Shown here: one piece after another, positions 21,858-46,860 of the stretch
How positions within the stretch are numbered: position 1 is the first letter of the stretch
Layout: every line of letters starts with the position of its first letter
Assembly (NCBI GenBank): GCA_041667185.1
Contig: JBAYFM010000002.1
Location: 23,432 to 87,431, forward strand
DNA length: 64,000 bases
Source: Patescibacteria group bacterium
Lineage (GTDB): Bacteria > Patescibacteriota > Patescibacteriia > SG8-24
Reading direction: 5' to 3'
Notes under the pieces: generated by a model
Database searches by the model: none
What the model was told of the DNA's origin: nothing
What the model saw: only the letters and a program-made list of their open reading frames with translations
Translations under genes and position numbers: made by a program

Positions 21858-21937
21858 TTAATCAGATGAACCACCGGCTTGAGTCGGATAAGGTCAGACT
21901 ATTCGGTCAACCGACGCGTCGATATCTCCCTCCGGTG

Positions 21938-22333
21938 TCAGGCACGGCTAACAGTCACAAAAAGTTTGCCGCCGAGCCAGACGAACAGCGGACCAGTGGC
22001 CGCCAACAGCACGGGATACCAGTGATTGCCCAGGTTCCATCCGGATACGGCTCCCGCGACGCCGCCGATGCCACCCAGCACCATCAGCCCCGCCACATGC
22101 CGCATGGGGCGGCTCTTGGCCAGCCGAGCGGTGAGGTAGCCGCCGGCGATCGTATAGATGCTGCGATAGCCGAGCGCAAGCGCGAGCATCCAGGCGGTAT
22201 AGGCCTCGGGATGGACGGCTGGCGGAAACACGCCGGTCGCTTCCAAGGTGCGATCCGTGATCACGGACAAGGCTGCCACGGTGATGAACCCGGCCAGAAC
22301 GACACCGATACTTCGGAAAATTGATCTGATCAT
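21938..22333 (-). CDS. Hypothetical small membrane protein (4 TM)
   Basis: 131 aa, hydrophobic, Gly-rich TM helices (LMVLGGIGGVAGAVSGW). Confidence 0.5.
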   Translation of the reverse strand: MIRSIFRSIGVVLAGFITVAALSVITDRTLEATGVFPPAVHPEAYTAWMLALALGYRSIYTIAGGYLTARLAKSRPMRHVAGLMVLGGIGGVAGAVSGWNLGNHWYPVLLAATGPLFVWLGGKLFVTVSRA

Positions 22334-22360
22334 ACTGGATGCTGAATGGCGCTCGGGATC

Positions 22361-22807
22361 TTAGCTCTCGAGCCTTTTTCTCAGTTCGTCTATGACGGCT
22401 TTCTGCCAGTACTTCATGGAATACCGGCTGATCAGTGGCTGTGCGACTAGGCGGAGCCAGCGTTTATGGATGACGACCTGATAAGTGTAATCGATCAGGG
22501 TTCCTTCCGGGTGTTCGGAGAGCAGCACTTCTTCATGGCCGGAAGTCCCGAATTTCGGGCTTTCATTGTCCGAAACATACCCCTTGCCGGAGAGGATCTG
22601 GGTCTTCATTTTGACCGGGAACTTTTGGCCGAACGATCTGACGGTCGCCTCCATTTCCAGATGATCTCCCTCGCGCCTCACGACTCGTATGGATTCCGCG
22701 ACTTTCGGAAAATACTCAGGAAATTTTTCAAAGTCAGTCATTATGCCAAACACCTCCGTCAAAGGAGCCTTGACGAGCCACTGGGCATGAAGAGCGAGGT
22801 CTTTCAT
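22361..22807 (-). CDS. SRPBCC (START/Bet v1/polyketide-cyclase-like) family protein
   Basis: 148 aa with the typical SRPBCC layout (APLTEVFGIMTDFEKFPEYFPKVAESIRVV...KFPVKMKTQIL...). Confidence 0.65.
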   Translation of the reverse strand: MKDLALHAQWLVKAPLTEVFGIMTDFEKFPEYFPKVAESIRVVRREGDHLEMEATVRSFGQKFPVKMKTQILSGKGYVSDNESPKFGTSGHEEVLLSEHPEGTLIDYTYQVVIHKRWLRLVAQPLISRYSMKYWQKAVIDELRKRLES

Positions 22808-22845
22808 GCAAGAACTATATCAAAAATATCTGTGTCGGGCACGGA

Positions 22846-22925
22846 TAACGTCAGTCAGTCTAAGCCAAAAATGTGCAATTCTTAGGCAACCCGCGGGCAA
22901 CCGAATACGTTATCTAATCAATTTA
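22846..22925. repeat. Copy 1 of an ~80-bp direct repeat that brackets the R-M module (pairs with 27000-27078)
   Basis: cgtcagtcagtctaagccaaaaatgtgcaattcttaggcaacccgcgggcaaccgaatacgttatctaatcaattta versus tgtcagtcagtctaagtcagaagtgtacaattcttgggcaacccgtgggcaaccgaatatattgactaatttaata. About 85% identity, same orientation. Confidence 0.7.
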
Positions 22926-23498
22926 CGAACCAAGAGTCTCTAAAGGATTGTCAGAAATCTCTTCTGCTGTAAAACGTTCATTTGATGCCAAAAAAAACAT
23001 CTGCAAATTTTTGGGTACAAATATCTTTTGTTTCGGCAACTTAATGTGGTGTCTGTAGAGATTGAGGGTCTCAGAAAACAAGTCGTCGAGTATCCTCAAA
23101 CTCCAGAGGCAATCAATGCTTAGTCCGCTCTCTCCAAAACGTGTTGAATCATAAATTTTTGTCAGTTCATTCAAAAAGTCTTTCTTTTGGGAGTCATCTA
23201 GTATCTTTTTGTACTCCGGAATATATGGAAGCGCCCTGCGCATCAACCCGACTAAATTATGTCCTCGCACAAAGTTATCGATATCCTTTCCCGTCGACTC
23301 TTTAATCTCCCTCCAATATATTCGAAGGGCTGCCTTAATACATGATTCCAAACATTGTTGTGCCAATAAACAACCTGTGTCGCAAAGACCCTCAATCAAA
23401 CCTACTCGTGCCAAAATATATGCCTCGCGAGCATTCCTGACTGCGAGCAAAAAAGCAAATATTTTTGTGTCCGGCCCATTCTTCAGTGGTTTTTCCAT
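22923..23498 (-). CDS. HEPN-like helical protein (putative; defense-island context)
   Basis: 191 aa, low GC. All-alpha composition with an R-x4-6-H-like motif (VRGHNLVGLMRRA). It sits directly upstream of the restriction endonuclease gene on the same strand. Confidence 0.4.
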   Translation of the reverse strand: MEKPLKNGPDTKIFAFLLAVRNAREAYILARVGLIEGLCDTGCLLAQQCLESCIKAALRIYWREIKESTGKDIDNFVRGHNLVGLMRRALPYIPEYKKILDDSQKKDFLNELTKIYDSTRFGESGLSIDCLWSLRILDDLFSETLNLYRHHIKLPKQKIFVPKNLQMFFLASNERFTAEEISDNPLETLGS

Positions 23499-23602
23499 AA
23501 CCGCCCCTTTTCTTTTCTAAATCATTGCTGGTATTACTTGAGCAATTCTTGGTCAACCGATGGTCAACCGGACCGGGAAATAACGCGGCTAGGATTTATA
23601 CG

Positions 23603-25012
23603 TCAATTCGATTGCGAGGCTGCTACGATATCTGCTATGAATTTCCTATTTAACCAGAAGCATTTCCTCACATACCTCTTCCCGTCTGGAGCGATGTCTG
23701 TGTCTGCCGCATTACGTGCATGTGGTCGGACATGACAGACCGGGCTCTCGGATTCACGGGGTAAATCATCTATTCTTCCCGCCTTGATCATCTTCACTGT
23801 TTTCTCCCAGACCTTTTTTACCTCGCCCTCAAGGGCGTCTGTCGGCATTGTCCAAAACAATACTTTTTTCAGGACCAATCGACCCGACTCATTCCTCTGG
23901 AAGACGACGAAAAAGAACCGCTGCTGAAATAAGCGTCTTAAATCTGAGTCATCCCAAGTCTGCGCGATGAGATCATTGTAGCGAAATGCGGGGAAAGACA
24001 TGGATTCCTTTGGTGCCCCATGCCGCTCTAACCTGATGGTTTTCATCAGTACTCCTGCCTTTTCGAACTCTTCGATCTTCTTCTTCCGAACACCCAAAAT
24101 AGCTCTCGTGAGGACTGCGATGTAATTTTTTGCGCTCGGATCAAGGATCAACTGCAATTCCGCGTTGATCTCATCAGTGGTCATCCCGATGAATGTCTTG
24201 AATCGTCTGGCGATATATTCCTCGAAGGTCTCGCCGCCCCTATAGGCATTAGAGGCCTTAACGGCTGGCTCCAGCTCTTTCCGTGCGAGCCTCGGGGCCA
24301 GTAGCCGTTCCAATATCGTTGTCACGTATGGCTGCTTGAGGGTCAGCGATCGCTGTTTGGCGTCAGGCCCACGAGGTTGTTTTCTCAACTTCGAGCCCTT
24401 CTGACCAGAGGTGGCGGCACCAAGATACAAGGTATCACCTTCTGATATCTCGTGTGCCCTTCCACCCCTCACCTTCTCGACGATCAGATTCCAATCATCC
24501 CGTATGATCTTCAGGTCGCCGTCGGGATAATCCCAGAGATGTGCGAGCCTGATGAGCGCATCACGATAATCAAAACCTGTCGGTCGGGAACCCCTGCGGT
24601 CTCGCAGGTAAGCGACCAGCAGGAGAAGGGCGTTCTTCTTCAAGAACGAGCTCGTCTCCCATTCTTCAGTGGCCATTTGCTCATAGTCTATGCTGCCCAA
24701 CTTGATCCGCTCCCCCGCGACCAGTTTGTTGTTCTTTCGCTGGTCGATGGGAAAGGACTTCAGCTCCACCCCTGCTTCGGTGAAGTCCGGCGCTGAAATG
24801 TTTCCTGGCGATATCTTGAAGTAATATTCTTCAAGGTCCTGACCAAAACCACCCTTCCCGGCACGTTTCGTGTCAGGAAGGTCAACGGCAATCTTTTCCC
24901 TGAGGCTATGCCCGAGAAGTTCTTGCGCGTAAGCTTCTATTGATTTTGGATCGGTTTGATCGTAATTCATATGTCTGATACGATTATGACGGATGTGGAT
25001 AAGTTCGTCCAA
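23603..25012 (-). CDS. Type II restriction endonuclease of the Sau3AI/MutH family
   Basis: 469 aa. N-terminal KRAGKGGFGQDLEEYYFKISPGNISAPDFTEAGVELKSFPI is collinear with the MutH/Sau3AI catalytic core (KGW-GQLLE...PDF...GIELK). The long C-terminal domain is consistent with the Sau3AI allosteric domain. Paired with an adjacent C5-MTase and Vsr. Confidence 0.7.
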   Translation of the reverse strand: MDELIHIRHNRIRHMNYDQTDPKSIEAYAQELLGHSLREKIAVDLPDTKRAGKGGFGQDLEEYYFKISPGNISAPDFTEAGVELKSFPIDQRKNNKLVAGERIKLGSIDYEQMATEEWETSSFLKKNALLLLVAYLRDRRGSRPTGFDYRDALIRLAHLWDYPDGDLKIIRDDWNLIVEKVRGGRAHEISEGDTLYLGAATSGQKGSKLRKQPRGPDAKQRSLTLKQPYVTTILERLLAPRLARKELEPAVKASNAYRGGETFEEYIARRFKTFIGMTTDEINAELQLILDPSAKNYIAVLTRAILGVRKKKIEEFEKAGVLMKTIRLERHGAPKESMSFPAFRYNDLIAQTWDDSDLRRLFQQRFFFVVFQRNESGRLVLKKVLFWTMPTDALEGEVKKVWEKTVKMIKAGRIDDLPRESESPVCHVRPHARNAADTDIAPDGKRYVRKCFWLNRKFIADIVAASQSN

Positions 25013-25081
25013 TGGCGAAGTTGATCTTCTGTCGATGACCGTCTATAATGATATGGCTATGTTCACCAGTAATACTCTCTT

Positions 25082-26497
25082 ATGATCAAGGGCAAGAAAA
25101 GCAACAAGATCCTCCGCGCAGCAGAATTATTCGCTGGTGTCGGCGGTTTCCGCATCGGACTCGACCGAGCGTCGTCCAGGAACAAACGGTTCGAGACTGT
25201 CTGGGCCAACCAGTGGGAGCCGTCGTCAGGCAAGATACAGCACGCGGCCTGGGTTTACGAACAAGCGTTCTTCAGGTCGCGAGACAAGACGGAGGCCGAG
25301 ATGAAGAAAGGATTCTCTAACATCGACATCAACAAGGTCGTGAACAGCGATGTGAGCATCGCCGACGACATTCCCCCGTTCGACCTGTTGACCGGCGGCT
25401 TTCCCTGCCAAGACTATTCGGTGGCTCGTCCACTCAGCCAGGCCGCCGGACTCAAGGGCAAAAAAGGTGTCCTCTGGTGGAGCATCTATGAAATCCTGCG
25501 GCACAGGATAGACTCTTCGAAGGAAGGGCCTGTCCCCTACCTGTTCCTGGAGAATGTCGACCGTCTCCTGAAATCTCCGGCATCGAATCGGGGGCGCGAT
25601 TTCGCCATCATGCTTTCGACATTGTCCGAACTCGGCTATGTGGTCGAGTGGCGTGTGATAAACGCTGGAGAGTACGGCCTGCCCCAACGCCGTCGTCGCA
25701 CTTACATAGTCGGCTACCACAAGACGACCAGGTTGGCCCAGGAGGCCAGAGCGGCCAAAAATCATCTTGAGTGGGTGCTGCGGAGCGGTGTCGTCGCCAA
25801 AGCCTTCCCGGTGGAGAAGACGTTCGTGCGCGGCGGATTCTTTGGCCTGTCGACCAGACCAGAGGACATCACGAAGCGCTTCGTCCCGCTGGACCCGGAG
25901 GTAGACGTGGATTTCTCCGCTCCATTCCAGAATGCCGGTCTGATGATTGAGGGACGGGTCCATACCGCCAAGACCTCGCCCGTCTTCCATGGCAAACCCC
26001 AGACCTTGGGTGACATCCTGCAACCAGAGGATACGGTTCCGAAGCAATTCTATATCCCTGCGTCAGAGGTAAAGAAATGGGAGCAGCAGAAGGCGGCGCA
26101 TCGATTCGAGAGGACTCACAAGGACGGGCATAAGTATCTGTACGTCGAAGGCAGGCTCCCCTTCCCTGATCCGTTGGATAAGCCCTCGCGCACGATCATA
26201 ACCAGCGAAGGAGGCCGGTCATCATCGCGGTTCAAACATGTCATCGGCGTGCGACAGCGCCCTGGATATCCCAAGGGCCGCACTATCGACGGACAGACTT
26301 ACCTGTACAGACGACTTACGCCGATAGAATTAGAGAGACTCTGCATGTTCGAAGATGACCACACCAGACTGATGTTCAATCCTCTCAAACAGGAGATCTC
26401 TGAGGTGCCGGATACGAAAAGAGCGTTCTTCATGGGGAACGCCCTCGTGGTCGGAGTCATCACCAAGATAGGCCGGGAACTACTTAAACGAGTCTGA
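25082..26497 (+). CDS. DNA (cytosine-5)-methyltransferase (Dcm-type; motif I FxGxG, motif IV PCQ, motif VI ENV)
   Basis: 471 aa. ELFAGVGGFRIGL (motif I), GGFPCQDYSVA (PC motif), LFLENVDRLL (ENV), and the C-terminal target-recognition/motif IX-X region (...FMGNALVVGVITKIG). Confidence 0.9.
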   Translation: MIKGKKSNKILRAAELFAGVGGFRIGLDRASSRNKRFETVWANQWEPSSGKIQHAAWVYEQAFFRSRDKTEAEMKKGFSNIDINKVVNSDVSIADDIPPFDLLTGGFPCQDYSVARPLSQAAGLKGKKGVLWWSIYEILRHRIDSSKEGPVPYLFLENVDRLLKSPASNRGRDFAIMLSTLSELGYVVEWRVINAGEYGLPQRRRRTYIVGYHKTTRLAQEARAAKNHLEWVLRSGVVAKAFPVEKTFVRGGFFGLSTRPEDITKRFVPLDPEVDVDFSAPFQNAGLMIEGRVHTAKTSPVFHGKPQTLGDILQPEDTVPKQFYIPASEVKKWEQQKAAHRFERTHKDGHKYLYVEGRLPFPDPLDKPSRTIITSEGGRSSSRFKHVIGVRQRPGYPKGRTIDGQTYLYRRLTPIELERLCMFEDDHTRLMFNPLKQEISEVPDTKRAFFMGNALVVGVITKIGRELLKRV

Positions 26498-26905
26498 ACT
26501 GTCGCGCAGCAGATCCAAGACCCTGAGCACCGCCCGCTCGGGGTCTTTTTTGATGTCATGCTCCCAAATTCTCAGCACCCGCCATCCGTGGCGTCGCAGA
26601 CCGGCCGTGTGACGCCGATCCCGTGCCCGATTCCGCTCGATCTTATCTCTCCAGAACTTCAGCCGAATCTTATGTTTCCATGCCGGGTAACGATACCCGT
26701 GCCAAAAATCTCCGTCGATGAATACTGCTATTTTATTTTTCGGCAAGGCGATGTCCGGAACCCCGAAAGCGGTGTGATAATGCCGCCGGAACCTGATACC
26801 GACTGCTGATAGTGCGCGAAACATGACCAGTTCCAACGAGGTATTTTTACCTCGAATCTTTGACATGATGATGCTCCGGACCTCTTTTGAAAACCTGTCT
26901 GGCAT
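26480..26905 (-). CDS. vsr: Very-short-patch repair endonuclease Vsr
   Basis: 141 aa. MPDRFSKEVRSIIMSKIRGKNTSLELVMFRALSAVGIRFRRHY...IAVFIDGDFWHGY...WRDKIERNRARDRRHTAGLRRHGWRVLRIWEHD is highly characteristic of Vsr. It overlaps the MTase 3' end convergently. Confidence 0.9.
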   Translation of the reverse strand: MPDRFSKEVRSIIMSKIRGKNTSLELVMFRALSAVGIRFRRHYHTAFGVPDIALPKNKIAVFIDGDFWHGYRYPAWKHKIRLKFWRDKIERNRARDRRHTAGLRRHGWRVLRIWEHDIKKDPERAVLRVLDLLRDSSDSFK

Positions 26906-26999
26906 CGGAGTAATGGTTCGAGACTAGGGCTCGAACCCATGAATCCTTAATTCTTGATCTGACCTATCGTCAGCGGAAACTTCGTCCGTCAGCACTCGT

Positions 27000-27078
27000 C
27001 AGTGTCAGTCAGTCTAAGTCAGAAGTGTACAATTCTTGGGCAACCCGTGGGCAACCGAATATATTGACTAATTTAATA
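27000..27078. repeat. Copy 2 of the ~80-bp direct repeat (pairs with 22846-22925)
   Basis: See copy 1. It carries a plus-strand sigma70-like TTGACT-17-TATCAT arrangement at its 3' end that copy 1 lacks. Confidence 0.7.
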
Positions 27079-27092
27079 TTCATTGATATCAT

Positions 27093-27824
27093 TTAGTCGT
27101 GCTCCGCAAGGGGTGCCCTGCCTGTGGATACAGGTCCGATGTCAAGACCCTCCCCGCCTAACGGCGCGTTGGGTCTTTTGATAATAGTTATATATTTTTT
27201 GATTCTTTGAGCGTTGATTGTAATATCGGCTTTGCGTTTGAATTCGATTCTAGTACTACTGCCGTGAATAAGAATCACGTTCTTTTTAGCTCGCTTCTTT
27301 ACGTGTTCGAGCAGCCCGCCGAAGTCATTATCGCTAGAAAATAAGCATAGAGTATCGAACTTGTCGGCCATCCTTGTAACATCGAGACAAAGTTCGACAT
27401 CGAAATTGCATTTTTGAATCACGATAAATCTATGTCCTTGATCATCGACTTCCGTCGTTCGTGATGTGGCTTTATCATCAGTTTGAATGTAATGGCGTAT
27501 CAGCTGGATGGGTTTTGTTATTGTCGACGAAAACTGATTCCTTGCCTTTTTAATGAGGTGGAGCGACGACGGCCTACTTTCGTCCAGGCCGTAATAGAAT
27601 AAACTTCGGGTCGAAAACCGATTTACGAATTCGCCCAGTCGATTGATGCTTACGACAATTTTTTCTTCCTCTCGTAAAGCTGCACCGGAATCATCGCGCC
27701 TATCTTTTTCGTACCAATAATTTACATTACCAAAATCAATGTACGTATAAATTCGACCCAGTTGGGTTAAATCAATGCGCAAGTCGTCTAAAATAATTTT
27801 AGTTTTTGCTTCATCAAGATTCAT
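27093..27824 (-). CDS. NYN-domain (PIN-like RNase fold) protein
   Basis: Start set at the Met that overlaps the upstream gene's stop (MNLDEAKTKII...); an earlier in-frame Met at 27863 is an alternative. NYN signatures YIDFGNVNYWY and CLFSSDNDFGGLLEHVKK, with acidic residues in VIQKCNFDVELCLDV. Low GC. Confidence 0.65.
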   Translation of the reverse strand: MNLDEAKTKIILDDLRIDLTQLGRIYTYIDFGNVNYWYEKDRRDDSGAALREEEKIVVSINRLGEFVNRFSTRSLFYYGLDESRPSSLHLIKKARNQFSSTITKPIQLIRHYIQTDDKATSRTTEVDDQGHRFIVIQKCNFDVELCLDVTRMADKFDTLCLFSSDNDFGGLLEHVKKRAKKNVILIHGSSTRIEFKRKADITINAQRIKKYITIIKRPNAPLGGEGLDIGPVSTGRAPLAEHD

Positions 27825-28339
27825 AACATCGGGCCCGACTTTTGGCTGATATGCTCGCTGCACCTAAATTCACCAAGTAATTTTAGATATTCCGACTGGC
27901 GACTAGTTTCTACCCACCCATCGGTTAATTTTCCGATGCGTTGCTCGCCGGCAATTACGCTGCACGGTGAGCAATAGAAAGCTTCGGGTGTTGCAACAAA
28001 TAACCAGGAGGGGTTCCAGCGATCGAGCAATTTGGATGCATGCGCGACTATTTGCTCAATATCAAATCGAGTCTGATATTTTACCTCGACAAGATACACT
28101 TCCTTTTTGTTACTCGAAATGAGGACAAAATCTGGGGCGTCCGAAATATTGTTTATTACTTGTTCAATCTCCACAAAATGCCGATACTGCGCCAACGTGG
28201 GCAGGGTGTGTTCGTACCCAAAAGGAATCACGGTATACCGGCCTTCCTTACGAATCATTTGCTCGAACAACACCTCGGCTATGCGACCCCGAATTAATTT
28301 GCGGGCGTAGGATATTTCGTCTGAAAATTTTTCGTCCAT
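27821..28339 (-). CDS. PD-(D/E)xK-like nuclease-fold protein (putative)
   Basis: 172 aa. APDFVLISSNKKEVYLVEVKYQTR gives D...E-V-K spacing typical of the PD-(D/E)xK core. Its stop overlaps the NYN gene start. Low GC. Confidence 0.5.
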   Translation of the reverse strand: MDEKFSDEISYARKLIRGRIAEVLFEQMIRKEGRYTVIPFGYEHTLPTLAQYRHFVEIEQVINNISDAPDFVLISSNKKEVYLVEVKYQTRFDIEQIVAHASKLLDRWNPSWLFVATPEAFYCSPCSVIAGEQRIGKLTDGWVETSRQSEYLKLLGEFRCSEHISQKSGPML

Positions 28340-28357
28340 AAATAGCTGTCAGCGCCC

Positions 28358-29311
28358 CTACATCGCTGGAGGCTCAATTTGTTTGGTCTCTGGCGTTTCA
28401 GCGGTATTTAGCGCATGAATCTTTTTGTAGTCAATCTGCAATTGCCCGCCCTGCTCTGTGGCATATGACGGTGGGTTTAGCGACAGGTGAAATTCGGCTC
28501 CGTCACCAAGTATTGCTACGAGGTCTTTGGTGGCGATAACAAGCTGAGTGTGCAGCTCGGCGTTTGCTCTCCCGTTTAGTTCCTTGATATCATTGATGAT
28601 ATTTTTAATGCGTTCTTTAAGTTCGAGATCTAACAGATTATCGATATATTTAATCAGCCCTTTTTCAGTGAATTCTTTTTCTTTTTCAAGTGCTGCCAGA
28701 CTGGCCTTATAATTTAACTCCGCACTTTTTGATTCATAATACGCCTTCTTTGTCTCCAAATACTTTATTGCGCCATCCAAACAGCCAAGAAAGTACTGAT
28801 AAGTTAAAGTACCGGCTGCTAATATTGCGTACCAATTGGTTCCTCGGTCAAAACCCGCAAATGTAAATTCGCCGTCGACGTTAAATTTTTTGAGAGTAGC
28901 GCCCAATTTAGTATTAAACGCGGTCAACTCGTCTAAGTTTGCTGTAGTTTTTGGTAAAAGTACGTTGATGATTTGCGCCGCTTGATCTTCAACAGCATCC
29001 GTAAGCATCGCATAAAATAGCGGGGCCGTTTTATTGAGCTGATCGACGTAGGATTTAAGGAACGAGAATTCGTCTTGCGGCAACAAAACTGGATTAGCGG
29101 CGGTTTTGTGAGCTTCAAGAACCTTCGCCACTGATTCACTTGGCAACTTATTCCATGACATTGATATAAACTTTTCGAGCGCAGTTGATATCTCAACAAA
29201 ATTTTCTACTTCAGAGGCTTGTCCGCCATATACGGCACGTGATTTGAGAGTAATCACGCCGACATCACTAACTACCTCTTTGATAATTTTTCGTAGTTCT
29301 CCTAATCGCAT
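28358..29311 (-). CDS. Hypothetical all-alpha protein, first gene of the three-gene low-GC cassette
   Basis: 317 aa, K/E/L-rich helical composition, no recognisable catalytic motif. 18-nt gap to the downstream PD-(D/E)xK-like gene. Confidence 0.55.
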   Translation of the reverse strand: MRLGELRKIIKEVVSDVGVITLKSRAVYGGQASEVENFVEISTALEKFISMSWNKLPSESVAKVLEAHKTAANPVLLPQDEFSFLKSYVDQLNKTAPLFYAMLTDAVEDQAAQIINVLLPKTTANLDELTAFNTKLGATLKKFNVDGEFTFAGFDRGTNWYAILAAGTLTYQYFLGCLDGAIKYLETKKAYYESKSAELNYKASLAALEKEKEFTEKGLIKYIDNLLDLELKERIKNIINDIKELNGRANAELHTQLVIATKDLVAILGDGAEFHLSLNPPSYATEQGGQLQIDYKKIHALNTAETPETKQIEPPAM

Positions 29312-29629
29312 ACAAGTTGCATTTATTTAATATTTTATGTAAGTTTAGCGCCATGAAGCTCATAATTCAAGAGCTAGAGCGCCGCTTTGACGCGATTAAA
29401 TTCAAACCGCGCGATTTTGAATTTTGATGGACTGAACGACTCCCCTCGCTCCGACTCGGGCCGGGGTTGGCGCGAGTCAATGAGCGCCAACGGGCGACAT
29501 GGGTCGCCCGGGGTCAGCCGAGGCCTTCATTACTTTGCCGAGGCTGACTGCGCACCGCCCCGCAATGTTGCGGGGCTCTCGCGTCCTTCTCGCCCCAGTT
29601 CCGCAGCTAAACAAAATTCGCCACGCCTC

Positions 29630-30394
29630 CTATTTCCGAGCCTCAACCTTCAGACTCTCCAACGGAATACCCTGATATTGCCGCTTACTGATGTCCTTGT
29701 CCTCGGATAAGATCTTCACTTTGAAACCTGCGCGAGCAATCTTCTTCAGATATTCGTCCCGGAGGACGGCCCCGCCGACGCAGCCCGCGATCAATTCTTC
29801 GTCCCCCCTCTGCTCAGCGGTCAAGTCCTCCAGAAGCACGATATCTGACAAATACATCCGGCCGCCGTCTTTCAGCACCCGCCAGGCCTCTTCAAACACT
29901 TTTGACTTGTCCGGGGCCAGATTGATGACGCAGTTGCTGATGATGACGTCGACCGAGCCGCTATCGACGGGTAGGTCCTCGATGTCGCCCAGCCTGAATT
30001 CGACGTTTTTGTAACCTTGCCTGTCGGCATTCATCCTGGCCTTGTCGATCATCTCCTGGGTCATGTCGACGCCTATGACCCGGCCGGTCCGGCCGACCTT
30101 CCTGGCGGCCAAAAAACAGTCGAAGCCGGCACCTGACCCAAGATCCAGAACAGTGTCGCCTTCCTTGATCTCGGCCATCCCCGTCGGGTTGCCGCAGCCC
30201 AGACCCAGATTGGACCCCGCCGCCGATCTGATCTCCGCAGCCGAATAACCGATGCTTTCGGCTATCCGTTCGTTTTCCCCGTCACCGCCACAACTACAGC
30301 TGCAACAACAGCCTTTACCGGCGATCTTGCTGTAGTGTTTTTTTACGATCTGCTTGACTGACTTGCCTGCGGTCATGTGAGTTGGGTCAAACAT
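29630..30394 (-). CDS. arsM: Arsenite S-adenosylmethionine methyltransferase ArsM (Cys-rich N-terminus)
   Basis: 254 aa. SAM motif [13 protein letters not shown], conserved ArsM cysteines ([12 protein letters not shown] and GLGCGNP), and IISNCVINL. Confidence 0.85.
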
Positions 30395-30484
30395 TAATAC
30401 GAATATGGTATCACAATGGGGTCGCTCCGTGGCAGGAATTACAGAGAAGCGGAACCAACGCTCGGCGAACTGTCGATTCTACTC

Positions 30485-30577
30485 AAAAGCCAGCCAAGAA
30501 ATTGGCTGGCTTTTGACTCTGAACGCATGTTGATCTCCATATATGTTCACTAAAACCGCAGACGAGCTGCGGTTTTT
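30485..30577. terminator. Two consecutive intrinsic-terminator-like hairpins (30485-30514 and 30552-30577)
   Basis: AAAAGCCAGCC-AAGAAATT-GGCTGGCTTTT and AAAACCGCAG-ACGAGC-TGCGGTTTTT. Both are flanked by A- and T-runs, so they could act in either orientation. Confidence 0.5.
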
Positions 30578-30580
30578 ACA

Positions 30581-30600
30581 TGGCTCCGAGGCTGGGGCTC
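30581..30600 (-). repeat. 20-nt exact copy of the 3' end of tRNA-Asn (att-like direct repeat)
   Basis: tggctccgaggctggggctc at 30581-30600 is identical to 30853-30872 (CCA, discriminator, acceptor 3' strand, T-stem). Similarity stops exactly after the T-stem. The two copies are 272 bp apart. Confidence 0.6.
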
Positions 30601-30814
30601 CTCTTCCCCCGCCGCTCGGGTCTTGGGGCCCCTCGACCTCGGCAAAATATTGAAAGCCTCGGTCGAGCCGCGGTCGCCGTTGCGACCGTTCGCTGCTTCG
30701 CTGGCTTGCGGCTCACCCCAAGCCTCGTGGCTCCTCCAGAGCCCGGGTCATCCGGCGAGTGCCATTCAAGGCACTCGCCGGATGTACCCTTCTCGCCCCA
30801 GCCTCGGTACAATA

Positions 30815-30850
30815 AAGAAGAGGCGGTGCCGTATGGGCACCGCCTCTTCT
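30815..30850 (-). terminator. Strong rho-independent terminator abutting the tRNA-Asn 3' end
   Basis: AAGAAGAGGCGGTGCC-GTAT-GGGCACCGCCTCTTCTT is a perfect 16-bp stem with a U-tract on the minus strand. Confidence 0.7.
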
Positions 30851-30852
30851 TA

Positions 30853-30927
30853 TGGCTCCGAGGCTGGGGCTCGAACCCAGAACAAATGGATTAACAGTCC
30901 ATTGCTCTACCATTGAGCTACCTCGGA
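30853..30927 (-). tRNA. tRNA-Asn (anticodon GTT), CCA encoded
   Basis: Manual fold of TCCGAGGTAGCTCAATGGTAGAGCAATGGACTGTTAATCCATTTGTTCTGGGTTCGAGCCCCAGCCTCGGAGCCA. 7-bp acceptor stem, D-arm GCTC/GAGC, anticodon stem ATGGA/TCCAT with loop CTGTTAA, T-arm CTGGG-TTCGAGC-CCCAG. Confidence 0.9.
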
Positions 30928-31176
30928 ATAATGATTTCCAATGAACGCTTTAACAAATTCGCGGCCGCATCCTGACTTCAACCATTTTTCCCGTTTTCTC
31001 GCTGTTGGCCGATCTGGTGTTTCCTCGCTATAGACCATGACATATGGCCTATGGTTCTTAGTCCACCTGACGTATCCGGAATTATGTTCCTTGAGACGCC
31101 GTGCGAGATCAGAAGTTAAACCAATATATAACGTCCGATCAACCAGACTCCGTAAGACATAAACCTTGTATTCCAT
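30907..31176 (-). CDS. Small GIY-YIG nuclease-domain protein (YhbQ/UPF0213-like). Its last seven codons are the 5' end of tRNA-Asn
   Basis: 89 aa. KVYVLRSLVDRTLYIGLTSDLARRLKEHNSG fits the GIY-YIG core (Y-x-L...YIG, Arg, Glu). The C-terminal ...SEVAQW* is encoded by TCCGAGGTAGCTCAATGGTAG, which is tRNA-Asn positions 1-21. Confidence 0.7.
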   Translation of the reverse strand: MEYKVYVLRSLVDRTLYIGLTSDLARRLKEHNSGYVRWTKNHRPYVMVYSEETPDRPTARKREKWLKSGCGREFVKAFIGNHYSEVAQW

Positions 31177-31179
31177 AAG

Positions 31180-31232
31180 CAGTCCATTGCTCCCTGCCTA
31201 CCGGCAGGCAGGTACCATTGAGCTACCTCGGA
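31180..31232 (-). pseudogene. Duplicated 5' half of tRNA-Asn (acceptor 5' strand, D-arm, anticodon-stem 5' strand) with a 20-nt hairpin inserted in the D-loop
   Basis: Minus-strand TCCGAGGTAGCTCAATGGTA[CCTGCCTGCCGGTAGGCAGG]GAGCAATGGACTG matches tRNA-Asn positions 1-20 and 21-33 around the bracketed insertion. It lies immediately 5' of the GIY-YIG start. Confidence 0.6.
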
Positions 31233-31320: not shown

Positions 31321-31600
31321 AGCTGAAAGATCCATTAAAAAGAGAGTGCGGGAGCCACGTCGTTCGCGAACGACGTGGCGGAGTGTGGGAGAGGCTGGAT
31401 TCCCGCTGGAGTGAAACCCCGCACTTGCTGCGGGGCGGGAATGACAATAAAAAGAGGGTGGATTATAAAACCACGAGCTGATCCCCCTTCGCTAAAGCTT
31501 CGGGGGACAAGTCGGAGGATTCGCGAATTATAAAACCCCGAGCTGGCGCTCGGGGTTACATATTGGAGGCGAAGAAGCCGGCCTCATGATCCGATCTCGA
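31321..31600. repeat. Composite intergenic repeat element, copy R1 (GGAG-rich tract, 24-nt perfect palindrome, conserved hairpins)
   Basis: Contains GAGTGCGGGAG, the palindrome CCACGTCGTTCGCGAACGACGTGG (31355-31378), GGGCGGGAATGACA, GGATTATAAAACC plus a hairpin, and ATTATAAAACCCCGAGCTGGCGCTCGGGGTTA. The modules are shared with R2 (32222-32440) and R3 (37125-37440). Confidence 0.6.
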
Positions 31601-32221: not shown

Positions 32222-32440
32222 AGATAGATGAGAGAAACGAAGTCATGGAGTGCGGGAGAGACGGAGTCACGTCGTTCGCGAACGACGTGGCGGAGAGTGC
32301 AGGAGTGCGGGAGTGCGGGAGTAAAGAGGATGGATTATAAAACCCCTGGCTCAATCCCCCTCCGCTGAAGCTGCGGGGGATTCACGAGTCATAAAACCCC
32401 GAGCTGACGCTCGGGGTAAAATTAAGGTGGCGAAAAAAAA
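32222..32440. repeat. Composite intergenic repeat element, copy R2
   Basis: GGAGTGCGGGAGAGACGGAG, the palindrome TCACGTCGTTCGCGAACGACGTGG (32267-32290), GAGTGCAGGAGTGCGGGAGTGCGGGAG, GGATTATAAAACC, and CATAAAACCCCGAGCTGACGCTCGGGGTAAAA. It lies in the 5' region of CPBP paralog 1. Confidence 0.6.
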
Positions 32441-37124: not shown

Positions 37125-37440
37125 GCGGGAGTGAGGGGGGGGGTTGAGAGTGCTGGAGTGCTGGAGTGCTGGAGAGACGGAGTGGAATGTCGGAGTGTCG
37201 AAGAGGCGGAGTAATGAGAGGTGTATTCTTCGCTTCTCCCCTGCTTCTGAGTTGGCCGTATTTTACCTTAAACCGGCGCAAACATCAAAATAAACAGGCT
37301 AAAAGTTCTGGAGTGCGGGAGTCAGGGAGAGACGGAGTCAGGGAGTGCTGAAGTACTGGAGTTCTGAAGGGCGGGAATGACATGTGTTAAATGCACGCGT
37401 CAGCTAAAGCTGATGGTTTATGGGGGAATAATAAAAGGAC
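37125..37440. repeat. Composite intergenic repeat element, copy R3 (octamer-periodic GGAGTGCT repeats)
   Basis: AGTGCGGGAGTGAG-G10-TTGAGAGTGCTGGAGTGCTGGAGTGCTGGAGAGACGGAGTGGAATGTCGGAG..., then CTGGAGTGCGGGAGTCAGGGAGAGACGGAGTCAGGGAGTGCTG and GAAGGGCGGGAATGACATG. The last matches GGGCGGGAATGACAAT in R1. Confidence 0.55.
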
Positions 37441-46383: not shown

Positions 46384-46860
46384 ATCAGTTGTGCTCGGAC
46401 GCGTCAACACCCATACCCCCGACCAAACGATGTCATATATTCAATCCCGGATCGAAAATTACAGAAACAATAAATGACCGTTTTAGGGCAACAACGGGCA
46501 GGATCAGCCTGGACTTCCTTTGAGTTATCCAGCATCCCTTGTCTTCCTATGAAGCCAATACCCTTTCAGGGGCCTTCAGAAGCCGGGGCCCAGACCCAAA
46601 CTCAGCAGCTCCCTATTAAAATGAAGCACTGCCTGTAGGGGGAGGGATTTCTGCTCCCCCACTTTGTCCGTGATTCACATCGCGGACTGCGGTTCCTCCG
46701 GTTTCGCTCGCGTAGGATTAGAGATCGCTTGCAAAACCCCGGGCGGCCCTTGCCGCCCGTGCGACACTCGCTAGCTTGCGTCGCACCCCGGGTCATCCGC
46801 TGCGTGCCATACCAGGCACGCCGCGTCTGTACCCTTCGAATCCCTCTTATATAAAGAACC

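Follow-up and report, generated by a model that had tools for sequence, protein, structure and literature searches.

A region of variable gene content lies between a tRNA-Asn(GTT) gene and an SRPBCC-domain gene in a 64,000-nucleotide stretch of a Patescibacteria metagenome-assembled genome (MAG; contig JBAYFM010000002.1, positions 23,432 to 87,431). This whole stretch is hereinafter designated the window. The region contains a restriction-modification (R-M) unit with restriction (R), modification (M), and vsr genes, a HEPN-domain gene, and an NYN-domain gene, and a short direct repeat occurs in it three times (copies c1, c2, and c3). The features of the region are as follows, with window coordinates, strand, and GC content at third codon positions (GC3):

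22361-22830, minus strand: SRPBCC gene (22361-22807) with putative promoter-proximal sequence (TTTTTGATATAGTTCTTG, ~22811-22828); conserved distal flank of the variable region.
22850-22918, minus strand: c1, a full 69-nt copy (core 22876-22903) flanked by the HEPN stop (22923) and the SRPBCC start (22807).
22923-23498, minus strand: HEPN-domain gene (Pfam), a module of its own between c3 and c1; GC3 0.42.
23543-23570, minus strand: c3, a core-only copy, CGGTTGACC-ATC-GGTTGACC-AAGAATTG, flanked by the R stop (23603) and the HEPN start (23498).
23603-26905, mixed strands: R-M-Vsr module, between the tRNA-like fragment on the c2 side and c3; GC3 0.58-0.70.
23603-25012, minus strand: Sau3AI-family restriction endonuclease gene, which passes the equivalog cut-off (Pfam, NCBIfam, PADLOC); GC3 0.58.
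25082-26497, plus strand: dcm-type C5 cytosine methyltransferase gene (Pfam, NCBIfam, PADLOC); GC3 0.70.
26480-26905, minus strand: vsr (Pfam, NCBIfam, PADLOC); GC3 0.62.
26914-26972, minus strand: degenerate tRNA-like 3' fragment, located ~60-90 nt downstream of the c2 core and extending from the anticodon arm to CCA; putative relic core of an attachment (att) site.
27004-27072, minus strand: c2, a full 69-nt copy (core 27030-27057) flanked by the NYN stop (27093) and the Vsr start (26905).
27093-29311, minus strand: NYN-domain gene and two genes of unknown function (172 and 317 amino acids, aa), a low-GC module ending in c2; GC3 0.42-0.50.
27093-27863, minus strand: NYN gene itself, flanking the block bracketed by c1 and c2; GC3 0.43.
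30853-30927, minus strand: tRNA-Asn(GTT), anchor of the variable region.

Repeat search and local alignment define c1 and c2 as a 69-nt direct repeat with 86% identity, in the same orientation and 4154 nt apart. Their local alignment score is 88, against a maximum of 25 for shuffled sequences (n=300). An earlier first-pass annotation of the window had described direct repeats of ~80 bp and ~85% identity at 22846-22925 and 27000-27078; the repeat is confirmed, with limits that were a few bases too wide on each side. Its other descriptive statements also hold. Specifically, the internal direct duplication is present as AGGCAACC-CGC-GGGCAACC in c1 and as GGGCAACC-CGT-GGGCAACC in c2, that is, (A/G)GGCAACC-N3-GGGCAACC in both, the upstream iterations are seen in both copies as a GTCAGTCAGTC run, and gene calls and domain searches place exactly four genes (HEPN, R, M, and Vsr) between c1 and c2.

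The third copy, c3, was overlooked in the first-pass annotation. It consists of the core only and lies within the bracketed block, in the gap that separates the R stop from the HEPN start. In the window, CAATTCTTNGNCAACCNNNGGNCAACCG, the 28-nt core pattern, has three matches, compared with 0.00 expected. Read on the minus strand, the strand of tRNA-Asn and of the genes that follow the copies, the core is CGGTTG(C/A)CC-N3-GGTTG(C/A)C-N-AAGAATTG, namely two head-to-tail 8-bp units 11 bp (one helical turn) apart. All three copies are upstream of a minus-strand start codon in one orientation, with core-to-ATG distances of 45, 69, and 125 nt. An isolated GGTTGACC unit at 21912 is taken as chance.

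The three copies coincide with changes in base composition. GC content at ~22.8-29.4 kb, a stretch downstream of tRNA-Asn, is 0.43-0.53, compared with 0.59 for the window. Along this low-GC island the GC3 values form a mosaic: a gene for a 131-aa protein (0.74) and the SRPBCC gene (0.64) are followed by c1, HEPN (0.42), c3, R (0.58), M (0.70), Vsr (0.62), and c2, and beyond c2 by NYN (0.43), the 172-aa gene (0.50), the 317-aa gene (0.42), and then a gene for an ArsM-like methyltransferase (0.71). c1, c2, and c3 coincide exactly with three GC3 breaks of the island. The repeats therefore mark junctions of independently acquired modules, rather than the two ends of one cassette. Within the modules, the 3' ends of vsr and of the convergent methyltransferase gene share 18 bp (26480-26497). 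The HEPN protein is an orphan. Among the 5.8 billion proteins searched, the sole match was a truncated copy of this protein, and comparison of its gene context is thus impossible.

Motifs related to the core were found in other metagenome contigs used for comparison (loci designated by L numbers). In L013, which carries the nearest SRPBCC relative examined (87% aa and 88.7% nt identity), the motif GCGTTGCCC-ACG-GGTTGCCC-ACGAACTG has 24 of 28 bases as in c2, and blastn aligns c2 with positions 224-249 at 92% identity. The L013 motif is 50 nt from a divergent gene of the excisionase family HTH_17 and ~120 nt upstream of a tRNA-Asn 3' fragment. The arm in L021 is the same as that in L013, and the flank turns unrelated exactly after ...CCTCGGAGCCA; the element boundary therefore falls at the tRNA 3' end. 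In L017-L020, the HTH_17 protein is 75% identical to that of L013, and the corresponding position is occupied by GCGTTGCCC-GCC-GGTTGCCC, after which comes a fragment of a different tRNA. Across these contigs the tandem motif is ~50 nt from the HTH_17 gene and 125-150 nt from the tRNA 3' fragment. The order and orientation of c2 are shared with L013, L021, and L017: motif, spacer, tRNA 3' fragment. As a separate observation, a tandem GATTCAAC-GATTCAAC lies directly upstream of the HTH_17 start in L013 (173-222, minus strand) and is distinct from the GTTGCCC array.

An nhmmer profile made only from the arms of L013, L021, and L017 was searched against the whole window. Its top four matches are c2 (E 0.003), the 3' end of tRNA-Asn (0.005), c1 (0.016), and c3 (0.38), all on the minus strand.

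A relaxed 20-base pattern has two matches in the metagenome contigs. The match in L003 was rejected as chance, being within coding sequence with 2 of 6 free positions in agreement. The match in L004, GGTTGACC-ATG-GGTTGACC-AAGAATT, has 25 of 26 bases as in c3. A tRNA-Phe 3' fragment is 125 nt away, and the ATG of a P4-type tyrosine integrase gene, whose product has Arm-DNA-bind_3 and Phage_integrase domains, is 20 nt downstream of the motif. The surrounding island also has HTH_17 and DUF3631 genes; no relatives of this integrase were found in IMG/VR. L004 apart, at least two independent element lineages show the motif together with recombination genes and tRNA-derived cores. Judged from sequence, the att arms of tRNA-targeting elements with recombination genes contain a tandem motif homologous to the core.

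The searches also bear on whether the element could be a generic intergenic repeat of the repetitive extragenic palindromic (REP) or miniature inverted-repeat transposable element (MITE) type, present three times here by happenstance. The element is short, intergenic, and equipped with short inverted repeats, as such a repeat would be, and the genome was examined over 64 kb only. However, the three copies lie within 4.2 kb with none elsewhere in the 64 kb, and the related motifs found are tied to HTH_17, integrase, and tRNA fragments. The core pattern has no match in 185,579 species genomes, and the relaxed 20-base pattern has none in IMG/VR viral contigs. Blastn of c1 against plasmids and of c2 against phages gave short matches only (E >= 3), and Rfam, searched over 22300-31200 with E up to 5, gave no match at the repeats. 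The dispersed copies by which the first-pass annotation would have recognized a REP-like repeat are thus absent from the window and from the species genomes, and we consider this explanation extremely improbable.

The tRNA-like fragment beside c2 is detected by ARAGORN at a relaxed threshold only and gives a weak match to the foreign att-arm profile. Positions 26927-26939 are a 13-nt exact match to the T arm of tRNA-Asn, in the same orientation as tRNA-Asn. Separately, the 8-mer CAAGAATT of the c2 and c3 cores (27038-27031 and 23551-23544) recurs at 26956-26949, in the anticodon-arm part of the fragment; it occurs only four times in 64 kb, always on the minus strand.

We interpret c1, c2, and c3 as remnants of att-site arms of tRNA-targeting integrative elements, left at accreted, integrase-less modules similar to cis-mobilizable elements (CIMEs), and assign this interpretation a probability of roughly 0.55. 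The proposal in the first-pass annotation that the repeats are the ends of a mobile R-M cassette is right in one respect: the repeats appear to be recombination-related, given the att-arm homology of the core and the tRNA-Asn-like fragment after c2. They are not the ends of one four-gene R-M cassette, because c3 splits the block into HEPN and R-M-Vsr, because three copies match three compositional junctions, and because the 64 kb contain neither an integrase nor an excisionase.

In the proposed mechanism, the core would be a binding array for a recombination protein encoded by the element, predicted to be either an HTH_17 excisionase (recombination directionality factor, RDF) or the arm-binding domain of a tyrosine integrase. 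During integration and excision, the bound protein would bend the arm that adjoins the tRNA-derived core. Foreign modules would have been added successively between tRNA-Asn and SRPBCC, namely NYN with the two genes of unknown function, then R-M-Vsr, and then HEPN. Each module would have retained an arm remnant at its tRNA-distal end while losing its integrase and excisionase genes, by CIME-like decay and tandem accretion. It is an established process that decayed elements without an integrase, bounded by att sites, accrete in tandem (PMC5704250). The sites would now be orphans that offer at most 69 nt of imperfect homology for deletion of the HEPN and R-M-Vsr block; alternatively, they may serve as substrates for a cognate recombinase encoded elsewhere in the genome.

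Several observations weigh against this interpretation. Neither an integrase nor an HTH_17 excisionase was found in the window (Pfam on island open reading frames, ORFs; tblastn on the window). Current mobility is therefore not claimed, and the sites are expected to be inactive unless a cognate recombinase is encoded elsewhere. Only the c2 junction retains a recognizable core, and intact attL/attR pairs are thus not in evidence; no tRNA-like fragment was found beside c1 or c3 by ARAGORN or sequence inspection, and deletions must be assumed there. The c1 and c2 flanks outside the core are absent from every foreign arm. On the short L013 and L017 contigs no integrase was seen, and the putative excisionase function of the HTH_17 gene is assigned from family membership and position. 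In L004, the orientation of the motif relative to the tRNA fragment is reversed, and this locus alone is weak evidence, as we estimate that ~1-2 chance matches are expected for the scan. Lastly, L013 has a terminator-like hairpin after the tRNA-Asn fragment, and the homologous hairpin of the window (30483-30515) is tRNA-proximal to all modules. Simple serial integration into the present tRNA-Asn 3' end therefore does not explain the region, and its history must be more complicated.

The position and geometry of the core raise the alternative of a shared promoter or operator. Two direct repeats of 7-8 bp with 11-bp phasing are the classic geometry of an activator site, and the tandem GGTTGNCC units could be operator half-sites through which one regulator of the OmpR/PhoB or HTH_17 type co-controls vsr, HEPN, and SRPBCC. 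The common orientation of the three copies, each upstream of a minus-strand start codon, agrees with this possibility, as do the location of the L004 motif just upstream of an integrase ATG (20 nt) and the overlap of the L013 and L017 motifs with the likely promoter region of the HTH_17 gene. However, the core-to-ATG spacing is not fixed (45, 69, and 125 nt), Pfam finds no regulator gene in the island, and the neighbouring gene in L013 and L017 is divergent from the motif, so that orientation to the regulated gene is not conserved. In addition, a scan for sigma-70 promoters and terminators gives nothing in the elements on the gene strand, and no sigma-70-like -35/-10 pair was found inside the element or immediately beyond it on the minus strand. 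The conserved TGnTATAGT-type sequence of SRPBCC itself is retained between c1 and its ATG; L023, a locus without a c element, has it too. On the last two counts, the suggestion of a duplicated regulatory region that coordinates the flanking genes finds little support. We consider a shared operator unlikely, and the repeats are probably not regulatory.

Other regulatory candidates were dropped. Readings as extracytoplasmic function (ECF)-like and Pho-box-like sites were discarded after inspection by eye, being not conserved between copies. A C-protein/C-box operator was set aside on gene content, as Pfam finds no small-HTH C-protein gene in the R-M unit; no palindrome scan was made. The c-element core is not present in the R-M intergenic region 25013-25081.

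The occupancy of the site was compared in relatives, all of them distant, with SRPBCC nt identities of 80-89% (measured for L013, L014, and L015). The linkage of tRNA-Asn and SRPBCC is conserved among them and the content in between varies. Specifically, tRNA-Asn and SRPBCC are separated by 240 nt in L023, by 2.4 kb and three genes in L015 and L016, and by 8 kb and nine genes in the window; L013 has ~1.2 kb with one gene between its tRNA-Asn 3' fragment and SRPBCC. Upstream, rpoD is present in L015 and L016 as in the window. A profile of c1 and c2 has no match in L023, L022, L014, or L015, and its matches in L013 are confined to the element side of the tRNA fragment. The window and L023 have in common only 18 nt (TTTTTGATATAGTTCTTG), which adjoin the SRPBCC ATG and lie between c1 and the ATG; they look like the promoter-proximal sequence of SRPBCC itself. 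An apparent likeness of the 3' part of c1 (ATTTTTGGCTTAGA) to the native sequence upstream of SRPBCC in L022 and L023 failed shuffle-controlled local alignment and was rejected.

The SRPBCC gene is itself unusually conserved, with >1400 homologues near 80% aa identity, mostly from Patescibacteria MAGs and repeatedly linked to tRNA-Asn. Its nt identity is 80-89% across host contigs whose GC content ranges from 0.35 to 0.59 (L013-L016, L022, and L023 examined).

Exact-protein look-ups of SRPBCC, the 131-aa protein, ArsM, and a Rce1-like protein did not find a strain-level empty site; all four contigs carrying the locus either have the same arrangement as the window or break inside SRPBCC. The single-copy empty site envisaged by the first-pass annotation can be judged from the distant relatives only: these join tRNA-Asn to SRPBCC, with no copy of the repeat there. 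The lack of a repeat copy in this interval is evidence against a long target duplication, for which one copy is expected at the empty site (PMC2853133), and favours import of the repeats with the inserted DNA.

Long target duplication has a precedent. For Helicobacter, Haemophilus, and others, Furuta, Abe and Kobayashi (2010; PMC2853133) describe long target duplications that accompany the insertion of R-M systems, and give as criteria a direct repeat >30 bp around an insert <20 kb containing R and M. The HEPN, R-M, and Vsr block could accordingly be an insertion that duplicated native SRPBCC-upstream sequence, or that sequence could have been duplicated locally later. The 69-nt repeat indeed flanks 4.1 kb containing R and M, and the repeat is not a generic genome repeat. 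The likeness to the R-M complexes of that paper (PMC2853133) extends to the linkage of Vsr with R-M, direct repeats >30 bp, and a GC content below that of the genome. However, L023, L015, and L013 have no repeat copy between tRNA-Asn and SRPBCC, c3 lies inside the block, and the core is homologous to att arms of foreign elements. The identity of 86% is low compared with the 93-98% that we calculate from ratios in Tables 2-3 (44/46, 417/423, 384/412; PMC2853133). The junctions also bear other mobile-element signatures, namely the att-arm homology of the core and the tRNA-like fragment that adjoins c2, the latter a signature of site-specific recombination according to the same paper (PMC2853133). 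There, repeats from site-specific recombination are separated from long target duplications (PMC2853133); the present case fits the first class and, as far as the distant relatives show, is without the single-copy empty site of the second. Target duplication, or later local duplication, is therefore in our view quite improbable.

A different possibility is raised by inverted repeats around the cores of c1 and c2. Two features were delineated on the plus strand:

22844-22914, plus strand: c1 with a flanking 8-bp inverted repeat, GATAACGT / ACGTTATC at 22844-22851 / 22907-22914.
26998-27068, plus strand: homologous inverted repeat of c2, GTCAGTGT / ATATTGAC at 26998-27005 / 27061-27068.

The 8-bp stems occur at exactly homologous positions, differ by three compensatory double changes and two G-T changes, and are accompanied by a conserved 7-bp inner stem. 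Pairing on the plus strand extends to all 30 cells, compared with 30-43% in slid controls. The inner arm of the 8-bp repeats is a variable patch within otherwise conserved sequence. With each copy following the stop codon of a gene, as attC sites do, the elements could be structured single-stranded recombination sites or a small RNA, folded from the plus strand in an integron-like cassette array whose recombinase is encoded elsewhere. However, the stem evidence comes from two sequences only, and its shuffle control is weak, with the observed value reached by 64 of 500 shuffles. Single-strand folding z-scores for all copies on both strands range from -1.5 to +0.6 and are unremarkable, and the stem is missing from c3, L004, L013, and L017 at the homologous positions. 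What is conserved is a tandem direct repeat, rather than the R''/L''-L'/R' palindrome of attC (GTTRRRY boxes). No IntI or attI was found (Pfam on island ORFs, tblastn on the window), and Rfam gave no match. A structured site of this kind is highly improbable.

The same holds for a more specific proposal, in which the c elements are live, structure-dependent sites of an undescribed cassette-capture system of Patescibacteria, with one plus-strand fold of ~70 nt per module. The modules would be the NYN set, R-M-Vsr, and HEPN, and in each fold the outer stem would vary in sequence while staying complementary, around a conserved interior that holds the tandem GGCAACC units. A recombinase encoded elsewhere would insert and excise modules at the tRNA-Asn-SRPBCC hotspot, combining integron-like logic with parts of a tyrosine-integrase att arm. 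We regard such a system as a long shot; the stems of c1 and c2 are unexplained and are not evidence for a new system.

Further repeats were observed around tRNA-Asn and in neighbouring intergenic regions. At the 3' end of the tRNA gene itself, the following was found:

30580-30600, minus strand: 21-nt exact direct repeat of the tRNA-Asn 3' end, with a second copy at 30852-30872; the pair brackets a 251-bp insert.

The insert holds a 26-nt inverted copy of the tRNA end (30790-30815). The distant relative L023 has a comparable insert of ~147 bp (1474-1650) that is enclosed by a 15-nt repeat derived from the end of its own tRNA-Asn; GGGCGAGAAG is common to both inserts. The insert at the tRNA-Asn end (30580-30872 in the window, and in L023) could be a miniature element or a collapsed attL-attR remnant. 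A 51-nt segment that is palindromic around GTGCC...GGCAC occurs at 30742-30792 and, with 80% identity, at 46787-46837, just downstream of tRNA-Asn and of tRNA-Ser(GGA), respectively, and may represent a tRNA-associated repeat family. Inverted repeats of 22-33 nt and 82% complementarity (29511-29546; 30637-30669 / 30799-30820) flank the ArsM-like methyltransferase gene (29630-30394) and the hairpin region. Arrays of the GGAGTGCN type with an 8-nt period are present in two intergenic regions (32226-32330 and 37134-37378), and a 44-nt palindromic element, ACGTCGTTCGCGAACGACGT, and 64-nt repeats are present at 31344-31576 and 32256-32437.

With the copies read as relic att-site arms, the region outlines the assembly of a small defence island (R-M with Vsr, HEPN, and the NYN set) next to tRNA-Asn in a genome of Patescibacteria, or the candidate phyla radiation (CPR). 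To our knowledge, mobile elements and defence-island dynamics are poorly documented in Patescibacteria, and integrative elements of the kind represented by CIMEs and by IMEs (integrative and mobilizable elements) have been little described there. The mechanism, site-specific integration followed by decay and accretion, is already known, and the result refines annotation without introducing a new principle. It also provides a reusable DNA signature, GGTTG(C/A)CC-N3-GGTTG(C/A)CC close to a tRNA 3' fragment, which is associated with an HTH_17 excisionase-like family, and the conserved tRNA-Asn-SRPBCC hotspot can be used for cataloguing cargo across relatives.

Among known systems, arm-type integrase (Int) sites and arrays of sites for excisionase (Xis), the RDF, include P'1-P'3 and X1-X1.5-X2 of lambda, the Xis sites of L5, and the TorI/IntS sites of KplE1, which overlap the int promoter. 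The arrays in L013, L017, and L004 resemble these in that short head-to-tail repeats about one helical turn apart lie tens to ~150 nt from a core, next to xis or int genes. They differ in that GGTTG(C/A)CC is not assignable to a characterized Int or Xis, that the cognate genes are absent from the window, and that the array is known here as sequence only. Integron attC arrays resemble the region in having same-orientation cassettes, each followed by an element of ~70 nt, with a hint of strand-specific folding in c1 and c2. They differ in having IntI, attI, and Pc, none of which is present here; the conserved part here is a tandem direct repeat, and stems are not kept in c3 or the foreign homologues.

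Compared with the CIME/IME arrays at tRNA genes, related to ICESt1/ICESt3 (Pavlovic 2004; Bellanger 2011; PMC5704250), only one of three junctions here, c2, has a recognizable tRNA-derived core, and the repeated part is the arm motif rather than the core. Neither a functional partner element nor an integrase is seen, and the order of the native hairpin misfits simple serial integration. In other respects the arrangement is that of these arrays: unrelated cargo modules in the same orientation downstream of a tRNA gene (Pavlovic 2004; Bellanger 2011; PMC5704250), att-derived repeats between modules, loss of integrase and transfer genes, and occupancy that varies among relatives (PMC5704250). What is new is a further example of this known process of genomic-island growth, in a Patescibacteria MAG.

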